A stretch of 64,000 nucleotides of DNA from NCBI RefSeq assembly GCF_050920415.1, contig NZ_CP169309.1; one strand, written 5' to 3'. Under the pieces are notes generated by a model. That model searched no databases. It saw only the letters and a list, made by a program, of their open reading frames with translations, and was not told the origin of the DNA. Shown here piece by piece: positions 1 through 60,588 of this stretch. This DNA comes from Escherichia coli (GTDB lineage Bacteria > Pseudomonadota > Gammaproteobacteria > Enterobacterales > Enterobacteriaceae). Numbering within the stretch: position 1 is the first letter of the stretch; every line of letters starts with the position of its first letter. The translations under genes were made by a program, and so were the position numbers.

Positions 1-1
1 A

Positions 2-823
2 ATTGCCTCCGGTAGCGCGATGATTGTTGATCTGAATACCAACAAAGTGATCTATTCGAACCACCCGGATCTGGTGCGTCCGATTGCGTCTATCAGCAAA
101 TTAATGACCGCGATGGTTGTGCTGGATGCACGATTGCCGCTGGATGAAAAACTGAAAGTGGATATCAGCCAGACGCCGGAGATGAAAGGGGTCTATTCGC
201 GCGTACGACTGAACAGCGAAATCAGCCGTAAAGAGATGCTGTTGCTGGCGCTGATGTCTTCAGAAAACCGCGCGGCGGCAAGCCTTGCGCACCATTATCC
301 CGGTGGTTACAAAGCCTTTATTAAGGCGATGAATGCGAAAGCGAAATCGCTCGGAATGAACAACACGCGCTTTGTTGAACCGACCGGATTGTCGGTGCAT
401 AACGTTTCAACCGCTCGTGATTTAACCAAACTGCTTATTGCCAGCAAACAATATCCATTGATCGGGCAGTTAAGTACTACCCGGGAAGATATGGCAACCT
501 TCTCTAACCCGACGTATACGCTGCCGTTCCGCAATACTAACCATCTGGTGTATCGCGATAACTGGAATATTCAGTTAACCAAAACCGGTTTTACCAATGC
601 GGCGGGCCATTGTCTGGTGATGCGCACGGTTATCAATAATAAACCGGTGGCGCTGGTAGTGATGGATGCGTTTGGCAAATATACCCATTTTGCCGATGCC
701 AGCCGCCTGCGTACCTGGATTGAAACCGGTAAAGTGATGCCTGTTCCGGCAGCAGCGTTGAGCTATAAAAAACAAAAAGCCGCCCAGATGGCGGCGGCGG
801 GGCAGACGGCGCAGAACGATTAA
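2..823 (+). CDS. pbpG: D-alanyl-D-alanine endopeptidase PBP7; 5' end lies upstream of the window
   Basis: ORF track 20..823; reading frame continues from base 2 ([11 protein letters not shown]...); translation matches recalled E. coli PbpG including SxxK active-site motif (SISK); stop TAA 821-823. Confidence 0.9.
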
Positions 824-825
824 GG

Positions 826-1108
826 GTAGGCAGGATAAGGCGTTTACGCCGCATCAGGCATTCGGAGCACAATGCCTGATGCGATGCTTGCGCATCTTAT
901 CAGGCCTACAAACGTGACGCGTCCGTAGGCAGGATAAGGCGTTCACGCCGCATCCGGCATTCGGAGCACAATGCCTGATGCGATGCTTGCGCATCTTATC
1001 AGGCCTACAAACGTGACGCGTCCGTAGGCAGGATAAGGCGTTCACGCCGCATCCGGCATTCGGTGCACGATGCCTGATGCGATGCTTCTATTTGCATCAG
1101 GCATCCAG
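826..1108. repeat. BIME/REP cluster: three tandem ~99-bp units of REP-type palindromes
   Basis: Unit gtaggcaggataaggcgtt(t/c)acgccgcatc(a/c)ggcattcgg...gcctgatgcgatgcttgcgcatcttatcaggcctac begins at 826, 925 and 1024; lies between convergent pbpG and dld. Confidence 0.85.
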
Positions 1109-1114
1109 CCGTAT

Positions 1115-2830
1115 TTACTCCACTTCCTGCCAGTTTTTACGCTTACTGGTTTTACCGATCCCCGGATTCATGCTGTTGGTCGGATCGTTCTCGCGATAGA
1201 ACTTCTGCAACGTCTCCGGTGCTTTATACAAATGACCGACGTTATGCTCGGCAGGGTATTGCGCGCCGCGCTGCTGTAGCAGTTCCAGCATCTGTTCTTT
1301 CAACGCATGTACATCCACGCCTTTTTTAACGATGTAATCCTGATGGAAGACATAGCACATAAAATGGCCGTAATAGAGCTTGTGCACCAACTGACTGTCG
1401 ATCTCCGGCGGTAAATGCTCATACCACTCGGTGTCGTTACGCCGCAGAGCGATATCCAGCGCCAGAATATCTTCGACTTCATCGGAATGCACCGCCTGAT
1501 AACGAATTGCTGCGCCCGCAGCGGCGAAACGGTGTAAAAACGCTTTGCTGCCTTCCTCCGGCGTACAGACAAAGAAATCGCCCTCGGCCTGTTTGAAATA
1601 ATCCACCAGCCACGATTTTGCTTCACCGACGCCATCGCCCGCCATTTTTAACAGCAGATGATGTTCATATTTATCGCGCCAGCTTTTCATGCGCGGTGGT
1701 AAATGGCTGGGGAACAGGTGACCGAATTTTTGCATCGCACGGTCGGTAAAATGCGGACGGAAGAATTTCACTTTCTCCAGCATCGCATCGGTACGTCCCT
1801 TGAGATTAAAGAAGAACGGCATCTTGTCGGTGCCTAACTTATCAATCATCAGGAAGGTGTCTTTGCCGTATTTTTCCGCAATATCGTAGATATCCCGGTG
1901 CATATATTCCCCGGCAACCGGCAGATTTTCGAAATTAGCCAGAATATGACGGCGGATTTCGGTCAGTACTTCCGGCTGGTTGGTGCCGATATAAAACACC
2001 TGCTGATTTTTTTCTGCTTCGAAGGTATCAAGACGTACCGCAAAGACGGCCAGCTTCCCGGCGCAACCAGAAGATTCAAATAACCGATCCGGATCGGCGT
2101 TATAACGTGCGGGCGTGTCGGCTTCAATATCACGAACGCGGTGGACATAGTCATAATCGTGGGCGTGACGACCATCGTGGCGCACATCGTCATCTTTGAT
2201 GCGATCGTCATCCAGCTTGCTAAGGATCTGCTCCGGCGTTTCGCCCAGATCAATCCCCAGATGGTTCACCAGCGTCAGTTTTCCATCTTCATTTATACGC
2301 GCGAATAACGACATTTCGGTATACGCCGGGCCACGCTGCACCAGCGAGCCGCCGGAGTTGTTACAAATACCGCCGATGACCGATGCGCCTATACACGATG
2401 AGCCAATCACCGAGTGCGGTTCGCGTCCCAGCGGTTTGAGGGCTTTTTCCAGCGAATAAAGCGTGGTGCCCGGATAGGCCAGCACCTGTTCGCCCTTGCC
2501 AAGAACGTGCAGCTTGTCGAGACGCAGGGTGCTGATGATCACGATATCGCGATCATAGTCGTTACCGTTTGGCGTCGAGCCTTCGGTCAGACCTGTATTG
2601 GCAGCCTGCATCAGAATAATTTTGTCGGCGGTGACGCAGGCTTTCAGCACCCGCCACAATTCCAGTAGTGAGCCAGGGAAAACGACAGCCAGCGCGTCGC
2701 CCTGACCAGAACGGAAGCCCTTGCGATAGCGGGCCGTTTTTGCGGGATCGGTGAGCAGGTGTGAATGACCGACCAGACGGGCAAGTTCATTCAAAAAGGC
2801 TTTATTATCAGTTGTTGTCATGGAAGACAT
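1115..2830 (-). CDS. dld: FAD-dependent D-lactate dehydrogenase
   Basis: ORF 1115..2863; start moved to internal ATG at 2830 (MSSMTTTDNKAFL...), giving 571 aa as recalled for K-12 Dld. Confidence 0.9.
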   Translation of the reverse strand: MSSMTTTDNKAFLNELARLVGHSHLLTDPAKTARYRKGFRSGQGDALAVVFPGSLLELWRVLKACVTADKIILMQAANTGLTEGSTPNGNDYDRDIVIISTLRLDKLHVLGKGEQVLAYPGTTLYSLEKALKPLGREPHSVIGSSCIGASVIGGICNNSGGSLVQRGPAYTEMSLFARINEDGKLTLVNHLGIDLGETPEQILSKLDDDRIKDDDVRHDGRHAHDYDYVHRVRDIEADTPARYNADPDRLFESSGCAGKLAVFAVRLDTFEAEKNQQVFYIGTNQPEVLTEIRRHILANFENLPVAGEYMHRDIYDIAEKYGKDTFLMIDKLGTDKMPFFFNLKGRTDAMLEKVKFFRPHFTDRAMQKFGHLFPSHLPPRMKSWRDKYEHHLLLKMAGDGVGEAKSWLVDYFKQAEGDFFVCTPEEGSKAFLHRFAAAGAAIRYQAVHSDEVEDILALDIALRRNDTEWYEHLPPEIDSQLVHKLYYGHFMCYVFHQDYIVKKGVDVHALKEQMLELLQQRGAQYPAEHNVGHLYKAPETLQKFYRENDPTNSMNPGIGKTSKRKNWQEVE

Positions 2831-20464: not shown

Positions 20465-20551
20465 AAATAAAAAAACCTGCTGGTGAGGCAGGTTCTTTTA
20501 TTTACTACTTTCAGGCCTAACACCACGGCCTGTGCAACATCGTGTTCCAAC
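20465..20551 (-). ncRNA. orzO: candidate OrzO-like antitoxin sRNA (type I TA)
   Basis: Minus-strand sigma70-like promoter (TTGCAA-N17-TATAAT, -10 at 20563..20558) and minus-strand intrinsic terminator (stem 20474..20494 followed by a U-run in the RNA); the transcript 5' region is complementary (19 of 20 nt) to the zorO 5' UTR at 20699..20718; ends are predicted, not mapped. Confidence 0.45.
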
Positions 20552-20789: not shown

Positions 20790-20879
20790 ATGGACACGCT
20801 GACACAAAAGTTAACCGTGCTCATTGCCGTACTGGAGTTATTAGTGGCTCTGTTACGGCTGATTGATTTGTTGAAGTAA
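20790..20879 (+). CDS. zorO: type I toxin, 29-aa hydrophobic peptide (ZorO-like)
   Basis: ATG 20790 preceded by GGAGAG SD; translation MDTLTQKLTVLIAVLELLVALLRLIDLLK; stop TAA 20877-20879; missed by the ORF track because shorter than 60 aa; matches my recollection of ZorO from E. coli O157:H7. Confidence 0.7.
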   Translation: MDTLTQKLTVLIAVLELLVALLRLIDLLK

Positions 20880-42503: not shown

Positions 42504-43325
42504 CTATCGCATAATGCCCATAAAGCCATGCACGCCCATATACACCCCAACTAAGCCAATCAACAGACTGGAAAAATAGGGGGCACGTTTAGCGAGAGTG
42601 TTAAATCCGCTCCAGCGTTTTGCGACCTGCTGAACGCTGATTGCTGCGCCAACGCCTACGGTGACTAGCGTTAACGCCAGGCCAATGCTGAAACTGACGA
42701 CCAGTGTTGCGCCTAGTGTCAGGGCTTTCAACTGAATACAAATCAACAGCACGGTAATTGCTGCCGGGCAGGGGATCAGTCCACCTGTTAACCCAAACAA
42801 TAAAATTTGCCAGTTGGTCACTTCTCTGCCATTGAAGCGTCGTTTGATGTCATTGGCATGGGCTCGTGCATGAGCATCCTGATACTCCCCATGTTCGTGA
42901 TGGTGATGATGTCCATGGTCGTGGTGATCTTCGTGATCGTGATGATACTCATGATCATGCCCGTGCATATTCTCCAGCCAGTTGCGTTCGCCGCGCCAGG
43001 TACGCCAGAACATCCAGAACGCGGTGCCAATAATGATCACCGCGGAAATCAACTGGAGCCACGGTTCTGCAGATTGAGCAGTAAAACGTTTGCTGATCAC
43101 CATCCCGCCAAAGGCAATCAACCAGACCACCGCGGTATGCGAAATGGTTGCTGCCAGTCCGAGCATCACCGCCTGTTTAATGGTGCCTTTGATGGCGATG
43201 ATAAACGCCGCCATCATCGTTTTTGAGTGCCCTGGTTCCAGGCCATGAAGCGCACCAAGTAAGATGGCGCTGGGAATGAAGAACCAGGCGTTTCCTTGCT
43301 GAAGAAGAGTGGTAAATTCGGTCAT
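42504..43325 (-). CDS. rcnA: nickel/cobalt efflux permease
   Basis: 273 aa membrane protein with histidine-rich loop (HGHDHEYHHDHEDHHDHGHHHHHEHGEY). Confidence 0.9.
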   Translation of the reverse strand: MTEFTTLLQQGNAWFFIPSAILLGALHGLEPGHSKTMMAAFIIAIKGTIKQAVMLGLAATISHTAVVWLIAFGGMVISKRFTAQSAEPWLQLISAVIIIGTAFWMFWRTWRGERNWLENMHGHDHEYHHDHEDHHDHGHHHHHEHGEYQDAHARAHANDIKRRFNGREVTNWQILLFGLTGGLIPCPAAITVLLICIQLKALTLGATLVVSFSIGLALTLVTVGVGAAISVQQVAKRWSGFNTLAKRAPYFSSLLIGLVGVYMGVHGFMGIMR

Positions 43326-43804: not shown

Positions 43805-43940
43805 CGCAACCAAACGACTCGGGGTGCCCTTCTGCGTGAAGGCTGAGAAATACCCGTATCACCTGATCTGGATAATGCCAGCGTAGGGAAGTCACAGACC
43901 ACCAGGTCATTGCTTCTTCACGTTATGGCAGGAGCAAACT
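43805..43940 (+). promoter_or_regulatory. TPP (THI-box) riboswitch in the thiM leader
   Basis: Aptamer ctcggggtgcccttctgcgtgaaggctgagaaatacccgtatcacctgatctggataatgccagcgtagggaag at 43818..43891, with conserved CUGAGA and ACCUGAUCUGGAUAAUGCCAGCG elements; sits directly upstream of the thiM SD and ATG. Confidence 0.9.
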
Positions 43941-50421: not shown

Positions 50422-50677
50422 CTTTTAATTCCTTCATGACAGGTAATGTAAGGTACGCGATGACAATACCATTTAATAATACCTTTTAAATACCTTTGCG
50501 GTGAAAACTTGACCGCGGTAACATTTTTTCTGATGAATCGAGCCAACAGAAAACGCTGAAAAAACATCCAAAAGATGGAAAAACTCGCCTGTAACGACCA
50601 GGATTATGATTGCCCGCAAAAGGCGGGCCAGGACAATCCATAGCCGATATCCAATCGGAATTTACGGGAGCATAGTA

Positions 50678-51730
50678 ATGACAGATATTGCGCAGTTGCT
50701 TGGCAAAGACGCCGACAACCTTTTACAGCACCGTTGTATGACTATTCCTTCTGACCAGCTTTATCTCCCCGGACATGACTACGTAGACCGCGTGATGATT
50801 GACAATAATCGCCCGCCAGCGGTGTTACGTAATATGCAGACGTTGTACAACACTGGGCGTCTGGCTGGCACAGGATATCTTTCTATTCTGCCGGTTGACC
50901 AGGGCGTTGAGCACTCTGCCGGAGCTTCATTTGCCGCTAACCCGCTCTACTTTGACCCGAAAAACATTGTTGAACTGGCGATCGAAGCGGGCTGTAACTG
51001 TGTGGCGTCAACTTACGGCGTGCTGGCATCGGTATCGCGGCGTTACGCGCATCGCATTCCATTCCTTGTCAAACTTAATCACAACGAGACGCTAAGTTAC
51101 CCGAACACTTACGATCAAACGCTGTATGCCAGCGTGGAGCAGGCGTTCAACATGGGCGCGGTGGCGGTTGGCGCGACCATCTATTTTGGCTCGGAAGAGT
51201 CACGTCGCCAGATTGAAGAAATTTCTGCGGCTTTTGAACGTGCGCACGAGCTGGGCATGGTGACCGTGCTGTGGGCCTATTTGCGTAACTCCGCCTTTAA
51301 GAAAGATGGCGTCGATTATCACGTTTCGGCTGACCTGACCGGCCAGGCTAACCATCTGGCGGCAACCATAGGCGCAGATATCGTCAAACAAAAAATGGCG
51401 GAAAATAACGGCGGCTATAAAGCGATTAATTACGGTTATACCGACGATCGCGTGTACAGCAAGTTGACCAGCGAAAACCCGATTGATCTGGTGCGTTATC
51501 AGTTAGCTAACTGCTATATGGGCCGGGCAGGGTTGATAAACTCCGGCGGTGCTGCAGGCGGTGAAACTGACCTCAGCGATGCAGTGCGTACTGCGGTCAT
51601 CAACAAACGCGCTGGCGGAATGGGGCTGATTCTTGGACGTAAGGCGTTCAAGAAATCGATGGCTGACGGCGTGAAACTGATTAACGCCGTGCAGGACGTT
51701 TATCTCGATAGCAAAATTACTATCGCCTGA
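50678..51730 (+). CDS. fbaB: class I fructose-bisphosphate aldolase
   Basis: ORF 50606..51730; start at ATG 50678 ([16 protein letters not shown]...), 350 aa. Confidence 0.9.
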
Positions 51731-51749: not shown

Positions 51750-51885
51750 ACTACCCCGTAGGGCGGATAAGGCGTTCACACCGCATCCGGCAACCTATGC
51801 CTGATGCGACGCTGAAGCGTCTTATCATGCCTACACAGCGCTGCCCCGTAGGCCGGATAAGGCGTTCGCGCCGCATCTGACATAA
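51750..51885. repeat. REP/BIME elements
   Basis: Two copies of the gccggataaggcgttc(a/g)c(a/g)ccgcatc palindrome family between fbaB and gatY. Confidence 0.8.
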
Positions 51886-52035
51886 AACAACGTGCACTTT
51901 GTTACGGCTTCCCCCGGGAGGCCGTTTTTATTGCCTGTCATTCTGGATTGATTTTCATATTGTCTTTTTTGTGATCGATATCGCGACATTTGGAAACAAA
52001 AAATTTCATTATATTTTGAAATCGAAAATAAATAA

Positions 52036-54193
<2,158 letters not shown>

Positions 54194-60417: not shown

Positions 60418-60504
60418 AAAAAATAAGCCCGTGTAAGGGAGATTACACAGGCTAAGGAGGTGGTTCCTGGTACAGCTAGCATTTTATGGGTTATGTTTTT
60501 CAGC
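60418..60504 (-). ncRNA. cyaR: CyaR (RyeE) Hfq-dependent sRNA
   Basis: Reverse complement of 60418..60504 reads gctgaaaaacataacccataaaatgctagctgtaccaggaaccacctccttagcctgtgtaatctcccttacacgggcttatttttt, matching recalled CyaR including its terminator hairpin and U-tail. Confidence 0.85.
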
Positions 60505-60588
60505 GAAACGGATGATAACCTTAATAAATGCAGCTGTATGTGATCGGTTTCTAAGAATTTTCCATCCGGGAAAAATAATCGAAATTAA

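Follow-up and report, generated by a model that had tools for sequence, protein, structure and literature searches.

A BIME-2 array with three Y units between the convergent genes pbpG and dld of Escherichia coli

The space between pbpG and dld in the 64,000-nt stretch of Escherichia coli DNA analyzed here (the window) is filled by a tandem array that, judged by its sequence, is an ordinary BIME-2, with every sequence-level feature of that family and none specific to BIME-1. The array is made of two full units and about two thirds of a third, in which the second palindrome is truncated. The explanation that we hold with high confidence is that of a BIME-2 array, an old resident of Escherichia, that would have gained its third unit by unequal exchange or slippage and would have the roles typical of its family.

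Bases 600-1400 of the window are 100% identical to NZ_CP169399.1 (strain MFDS1022581), and the RefSeq annotation of that record is empty between pbpG and dld. The two genes had been proposed to converge on the array in a preliminary description of this DNA, and both their stop codons and the annotation bear this out (Table 1). The gap measures 291 nt and lies between two stop codons, so the array is extragenic. Its last structured element ends at 1105, which gives a span of 826-1105 and makes the end first proposed (1108) about right. Tandem Repeats Finder reports 826-1087 with a period of 99, 2.6 copies, 97% matches, no indels, and a score of 496; this is the sole long-period array that it found within the 64-kb window. 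A repeat search placed the in-register copies at 826-924 (reference, 100%), 925-1023 (98%), and 1024-1122 (65%). Of the 99 positions, only 20 and 31 distinguish unit 2 from unit 1. Unit 3 can be followed as far as position 64, beyond which it diverges, and up to there it adds two differences, at 41 and 46. The preliminary description of three tandem composite REP units of about 99 bp is therefore correct as to direct tandem arrangement and period, but the third unit is incomplete because its Z2 is cut short.

Table 1. Features of the pbpG-dld interval and its flanks, in window coordinates
Feature	Coordinates	Strand	Remarks
pbpG, 3' part (D-alanyl-D-alanine endopeptidase)	1..823	+	TAA stop 821-823; start upstream of window; from ORF list and RefSeq annotation of NZ_CP169399.1
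Y-type REP 1	826..860	consensus on -	GTAG at 826-829 (+); 3 mismatches to Y consensus; begins 2 nt past pbpG stop
Rfam RF02564 naRNA4 match, unit 1	829..906	+	76.9 bits; gathering score 59.5
Spurious 63-aa ORF	854..1045	-	GTG start; translation internally duplicated; spans two units
S linker 1 (short, head-to-head)	861..872		TTCGGAGCACAA; 12 nt; without IHF consensus
Z2-type REP 1	873..909	+	ends CTAC; 3 mismatches to Z2 consensus; hairpin -20.0 kcal/mol
Tail-to-tail linker 1	910..924		AAACGTGACGCGTCC; locus-specific
Unit 2, whole	925..1023		extra 99 bp relative to 2-unit alleles; chimera
Y-type REP 2	925..959	consensus on -	1 mismatch to Y consensus
Rfam RF02564 naRNA4 match, unit 2	928..1005	+	81.8 bits; gathering score 59.5
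S linker 2	960..971		TTCGGAGCACAA
Z2-type REP 2	972..1008	+	3 mismatches to Z2 consensus
Tail-to-tail linker 2	1009..1023		AAACGTGACGCGTCC
Y-type REP 3	1024..1058	consensus on -	1 mismatch to Y consensus
S linker 3	1059..1070		TTCGGTGCACGA
Terminal perfect palindrome	1069..1105		12-bp arms 1069-1080/1094-1105; 13-nt loop; 9 nt from dld stop
Truncated Z2 number 3	1071..1087	+	5' 17 nt only, TGCCTGATGCGATGCTT
dld (D-lactate dehydrogenase)	1115..2830	-	stop codon 1115-1117; convergent with pbpG; from ORF list and RefSeq annotation of NZ_CP169399.1

Dissection of the unit gives a Y REP of 35 nt, an S linker of 12 nt, a Z2 REP of 37 nt, and a second linker of 15 nt. Across units, the 12-nt linker reads TTCGG(A/T)GCAC(A/G)A. 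A REP requires a GTAG foot and a 2-nt mismatch inside its stem (PMC3333891). GTAG stands at 826, 925, and 1024 and CTAC at 906 and 1005; the internal mismatches (AA/GC in Y and GC/TT in Z2) are kept in every unit. The Y and Z2 consensus sequences used for scanning are consistent with the units of REP325 in K-12. The scan returned three Y (3, 1, and 1 mismatches) and two Z2 (3 each) in the array, a yield far beyond chance, since 0.00 were expected from 100 shuffles. The REP assignment had been offered as one to be dropped if the units failed to align with known consensus sequences; they do align, within three mismatches. Parts of the query also match at least 27 places per genome (median).

BIME-2 elements are defined by inverse Y and Z2 sequences with a short S linker, present in multiple tandem copies that are conserved within a locus and vary in number among strains (PMC3333891). 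The order found here is Y(-), 12 nt, Z2(+), 15 nt, Y(-) and so on, with three Y, two whole Z2, and one partial Z2. The array shares with other BIME-2 of E. coli the inverted alternation of Y and Z2, the short head-to-head linker, and the second linker placed tail to tail, as well as near-identical tandem copies within the locus, a strain-variable copy number, and an extragenic position at gene 3' ends. It differs from them in two details. All of its Y copies carry a C-to-A change (GTAGGCAGG in place of GTAGGCCGG) that breaks one stem pair, and its last Z2 is truncated into a perfect palindrome. In unit 3, the Z2 stops after 17 nt and is joined via CTATTT to GCATCAGGCATC; the resulting palindrome, with its 12-bp arms, thus combines the 5' half of Z2 with what is left of the head of another inverted REP. 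K-12 has no array at this locus, which is therefore missing from K-12-based REP catalogues; the K-12 RefSeq record lists no feature between dld and pbpG.

Pairing in the stems was compared over 19 distinct units, drawn from this locus in several species, from REP325, and from a second BIME of the window. In this set, 95% of stem cells are paired. A compensatory change in the inner stem accounts for two of the three Z2 differences (U-A, as against C-G in REP325 and in another BIME of the window), and the pair hit by the GTAGGCAGG change is unpaired in 8 of the 19 units. Folded alone as RNA, Y REP 1 gives -12.6 kcal/mol, and the terminal palindrome forms a hairpin on either strand (-24.1 kcal/mol for + and -21.8 kcal/mol for -). 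The RNA of region 800-1140 is far more stable than its shuffles on both strands (z = -9.7 and -9.3).

In BIME-1 elements, Z1 is present and IHF binds to a site in the long L linker (PMC3333891). The array resembles BIME-1 (RIP) in having two inverted REPs, one of which is Y, but it has neither Z1 nor a long linker with an IHF site, and where BIME-1 occurs as a single copy, it is repeated. The consensus scan gave no Z1 match in the pbpG-dld intergenic region, and the IHF consensus WATCAANNNNTTR does not occur in 824-1114. We therefore reject a BIME-1/IHF reading on the Z2 partner, the 12-nt linker, the several copies, and the lack of an IHF consensus; IHF binding, which had been ascribed to the array at first, is not supported for this BIME-2.

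Allele lengths were read from representatives of 5,426 complete E. coli genomes. Only 20 genomes have a place covering at least 80% of window bases 600-1400. The three-unit gap of 291 nt occurs in one genome, that of the source strain MFDS1022581, and is thus known from a single assembly. Two-unit alleles total 15 genomes: 11 with a gap of 192 nt and four with 210-211 nt, in which the second Z2 is complete (for example, the 210-nt allele of strain 2020CK-00188). One unit in a gap of 93 nt is found in four genomes. About 5,400 genomes have 37-38 nt and no REP, and the array is missing from 99.6% of complete E. coli. The comparison of copy number across strains that had been recommended thus reveals a clear 0/1/2/3-unit polymorphism. 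An exact 57-nt junction across the 15-nt linker is found in 16 of the 5,426 genomes, exactly those with at least two units; matches to it elsewhere reach 88% or lower, which marks the linker as locus-specific. The flanks of the 1-, 2-, and 3-unit alleles differ by 1-2 of about 500 nt.

The age of the array was addressed by searching for neighboring pbpG and dld across Enterobacteriaceae, with one genome per species. All five non-coli Escherichia lineages recovered have REP-derived sequence at this site; four of them have a Y/Z2 BIME array there whose linkers are related. In E. albertii it occupies 463 nt, with five Y, three recognized Z2, and two degenerate Z2-like copies; the linkers are homologous (AAATGTGACGAACCT and TTCAGGCACAA) and the right end is related. 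E. whittamii has 211 nt with two Y and two Z2, and strain SCPM-O-B-8794 has 147 nt with one of each. Escherichia sp. E1V33 retains a 61-nt palindrome remnant with a homologous right end (...GCATCAGGCATCCAGCCGTAT). Escherichia sp. MOD1-EC7003 has at least 4.4 units, with a TAA-GG-GTAGG left junction and a 15-nt linker (AAACGTGACGCGTCC) that are both identical to those of the window. Its contig NZ_PTRE01000098.1 (locus 2415-2852) ends inside the homologous pbpG-dld array, which is consistent with BIME arrays interrupting assemblies and with draft genomes under-reporting copy number. Citrobacter and Salmonella have their own REP types at the site. The pbpG-dld spacing is 580-860 nt, as against <100 nt, in Enterobacter, Klebsiella, Kosakonia, Phytobacter, and several Citrobacter, so that the site may hold an additional gene or a longer insert in these genera.

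Because five outgroup lineages carry REP-derived sequence at the site, parsimony suggests that the array probably dates back to the ancestor of the genus and gave way to another spacer in the lineage from which most E. coli descend. Under such a history, most E. coli would have swapped the old Escherichia array for the 37-38-nt spacer, and the 20 exceptions among 5,426 would have kept one to three units. The recent arrival of a mobile REP doublet in an empty site was considered and rejected, given REP-derived sequence in five Escherichia lineages and orthologous arrays in four of them. The BIME allele may also have been introgressed into E. coli from a close Escherichia clade, such as that of MOD1-EC7003. 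BIME-bearing and empty flank haplotypes are interleaved, and those of GF4-3 and 6EVA are nearer to the empty alleles of O157/ST131 than to the window.

The spacer found in most E. coli has the sequence (G/A)TGAAT..CGGATGGCGATACTCTGCCATCCGTAATTT and forms a 9-pair hairpin (CGGATGGC-N8-GCCATCCG) followed by TAATTTTT, at -15.6 kcal/mol. It lies at the same position as the array and it, too, has a stable hairpin close to both stop codons, at 6-7 nt. However, its 37-38 nt hold one hairpin with a T-run and no REP consensus, and a terminator scan accepts it as an intrinsic terminator on the pbpG strand, whereas the same scan found no hairpin followed by a T-run on either strand of 824-1114. The canonical pbpG terminator is lost from the BIME alleles, a feature that sets them apart. 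The K-12 hairpin is absent from all five non-coli Escherichia lineages examined. We also considered that the short spacer might be the collapsed remnant of an ancestral BIME-2, with a REP palindrome turned into a compact intrinsic terminator. This seems rather unlikely; in alignments of the spacer with the BIME tail, 48-272 of 2,000 shuffles reach the observed score, which is thus marginally above the shuffles. If it were true, the 0-, 1-, 2-, and 3-unit alleles on near-identical flanks would form a natural isogenic series that could serve to measure gyrase-dependent supercoil insulation, mRNA 3' protection, and naRNA production.

Unit 2 accounts for the additional length of the window allele. 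Window units 1 and 3 correspond to both units of the two-unit allele, and the flanks of one two-unit strain, 2017-02-2CC, differ from the window at 1 of about 500 nt. Column comparison shows that unit 2 is unit-3-like at positions 20 and 31 and unit-1-like at 41 and 46 and throughout the full Z2 and linker, which confines the crossover to unit positions 32-40 (GGCATTCGG). As far as sequence comparison can tell, this chimera is the signature of unequal homologous exchange in a two-unit allele; a single exchange within GGCATTCGG between misaligned units would yield unit 2 exactly. The third unit would thus be the recent product of unequal homologous exchange, or of replication slippage, and one-unit alleles would be products of the reciprocal type. 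Strain N96, for instance, has one unit with the head of unit 1 and the truncated tail, on the same flank haplotype.

The other route to an extra unit, or to the whole array, is the transposase RayT/TnpA-REP acting by strand transfer and by cleavage at C|T sites within inverted REPs or linkers, in which case the array would be a mobile element in active amplification. Experiments in vitro have shown TnpA-REP to cut BIMEs and to build tandem copies, and their authors propose amplification by this route (PMC3333891). The recognition determinants (5' GTAG and the stem mismatch) are intact in all three Y copies, and rayT is present in 3,575 of the 5,426 complete genomes (66%). Cleavage by the REP-associated transposase needs C|T, however (PMC3333891), and the crossover interval GGCATTCGG contains none on either strand, which favors exchange or slippage by the host over amplification by the transposase. 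Both the product and the reciprocal one-unit alleles are exactly as unequal homologous exchange predicts, and the orthology of the array across Escherichia species, together with its locus-specific linkers, shows that it was not inserted recently. Amplification by RayT is thus improbable, and unequal exchange or slippage remains the preferred origin of the third unit.

The position of the array bears on its candidate roles. REPs have been credited with transcription attenuation or termination, with protection of upstream mRNA, and with insulation of transcription-induced positive supercoils, and they bind gyrase, Pol I, and, in BIME-1 only, IHF (PMC3333891). Some BIME-2 elements are enriched in gyrase cleavage, mostly at Y units, and blocking transcription does not abolish it (PMC6379681). 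According to the summary of Liang, Rudd and Deutscher (2015) given in PMC12306157, a gene is translated less when a REP lies within 15 nt of its stop codon. Here, the distances from the pbpG stop are 2 nt to the GTAG of Y REP 1 and 6 nt to the first stem base, and 9 nt separate the terminal palindrome from the dld stop, so that the hairpins near both stops fall inside the range given in that summary. Such proximity does not separate the alleles, because the K-12 hairpin is equally close to both stops. By analogy with characterized elements, both convergent transcripts would enter the array and gain very stable 3' hairpins, which would block 3'-5' exonucleases and attenuate read-through; hairpins within 15 nt of the stops may in addition dampen translation of pbpG and dld. 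The Y units, as preferred gyrase sites, would remove or insulate positive supercoils between converging polymerases, a role that fits the position because positive supercoils accumulate between convergent genes. The likely roles are therefore those of 3'-UTR hairpins for both transcripts, gyrase site, and supercoil insulator. The array is dispensable, since 99.6% of E. coli do without it, and this near-universal absence argues that any benefit is small.

A more specific function would be that of REP325, the K-12 yjdM-yjdN array from which naRNA1-6 derive. The Rfam model naRNA4 (RF02564) represents the Y-linker-Z2 RNA and was built on REP325; two units here pass its gathering score, and unit 3 (1027-1103), at 52.0 bits, falls under the 59.5 threshold. 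Past its upstream gene, REP325 has GTAG-Y, an 11-nt linker, Z2-CTAC, and a 17-nt spacer with a period of 100, so that the two arrays agree in element order and in orientation to the upstream gene and nearly agree in period (100 versus 99). On these grounds, the array could be chiefly a source of naRNAs: read-through from pbpG would give Y-linker-Z2 RNAs of ~77 nt that, with HU, would bridge cruciforms and condense the nucleoid. The matches to units 1 and 2 lie on the + strand, which is the strand transcribed with pbpG, and the architecture is identical to that of REP325, with Y first downstream of the upstream gene (PMC4550694). The two arrays nonetheless differ in several respects. REP325 has six units rather than three, lies between co-directional rather than convergent genes, and has the linkers ACGGTGCCGAC and AAATTCCCGCACCCTCC instead of TTCGGAGCACAA and AAACGTGACGCGTCC.

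The HU-linked function in DNA condensation was reported for the products of REP325/naRNA4 and demonstrated for these only (PMC4550694). The Rfam model also just passes (60.0 bits versus 59.5) on an unrelated BIME at 51761-51831 of the window, which indicates that RF02564 detects generic Y-S-Z2 doublets and not a specific RNA gene. A match to the model does not by itself imply a REP325-type, HU-linked function. With the array also missing from nearly all E. coli, we consider it unlikely that naRNA production is its chief role. The second BIME as a whole (51758-51882) consists of Y(-) at 51758-51792, a 5-nt linker, Z2(+) at 51798-51834, a 13-nt linker, and Y(-) at 51848-51882. Its neighbors are the co-directional ORFs 50606-51730 and 52042-52902, and a hairpin with a T-run comes after it at ~51907-51932.

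That the three-unit length occurs in 1 of 5,426 genomes, and that this one is the source of the window itself, raises the question of whether the assembly wrongly added the third unit to an allele that really has two. We think this highly improbable. Unit 2 copies neither neighbor and is a clean one-switch chimera, which is not what an assembler would invent; at 291 nt, the repeat falls short of the length of ordinary read pairs and well short of that of long reads. Assemblers also tend to collapse rather than expand repeats.

The regular period and the 63-codon ORF that runs across two units on the - strand could also be taken for a CRISPR-like array or a small coding gene, a reading to which we give practically no credence. 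We ruled out a CRISPR array because the whole 99-bp period repeats at 97-98% with its linkers, which leaves no unique spacers (as had been remarked at the outset), because the repeats match the REP consensus, and because there is no cas gene among the annotated neighbors yohC, pbpG, and dld or in bglX, which comes next in K-12. We likewise ruled out the ORF at 854-1045 (-) as a gene: it has a GTG start and a duplicated sequence, matches no Pfam family, is absent from the RefSeq annotation, and is open only because 99 is a multiple of 3, in agreement with its first description as spurious. The DNA concerned is, besides, the same that 99.6% of E. coli do without.

Several other features of the window and its source genome were recorded. 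The Rfam OrzO-P antitoxin sRNA matches at 20469-20544 (-) and 20790-20879 (+), with 98.9 bits, adjoining a 29-aa ORF (MDTLTQKLTVLIAVLELLVALLRLIDLLK) that resembles the ZorO type I toxin; the ZorO/OrzO-P toxin-antitoxin locus has been described in O157:H7 and is not known from K-12. An 18-bp tandem repeat at 42891-42956 (~3 copies, 71-73% matches) lies in ORF 42504-43325 (-) and encodes a histidine-rich loop (HGHDHEYHHDHEDHHDHGHHHHHEHGE) in a 273-aa membrane protein that resembles the nickel/cobalt efflux protein RcnA. The CyaR/RyeE sRNA at 60421-60506 (-; 100.7 bits) and a TPP riboswitch at 43810-43906 (+; 71.5 bits) both score above the Rfam gathering threshold and are expected features of E. 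coli. Positions 4,000,000-4,030,000 of NZ_CP169399.1 hold a lambdoid prophage with tail, head, terminase, and lysis genes, a KAP family NTPase, and a DNA methyltransferase.

The array is of a kind already known: for decades the literature has covered BIME-2 arrays with their palindromes, variation in copy number, and proposed functions, and Rfam already has a model that recognizes the units. The facts added here are its rarity in E. coli, its probable ancestry in the genus, the unique three-unit allele, and the signature of recombination, none of which will surprise a specialist. Annotation of such a locus should leave out the 63-aa ORF and should not label the array a CRISPR. For experiment, the K-12-type terminator and one, two, and three units on near-identical flanks amount to a natural allelic series in which the role of a BIME-2 could be tested.
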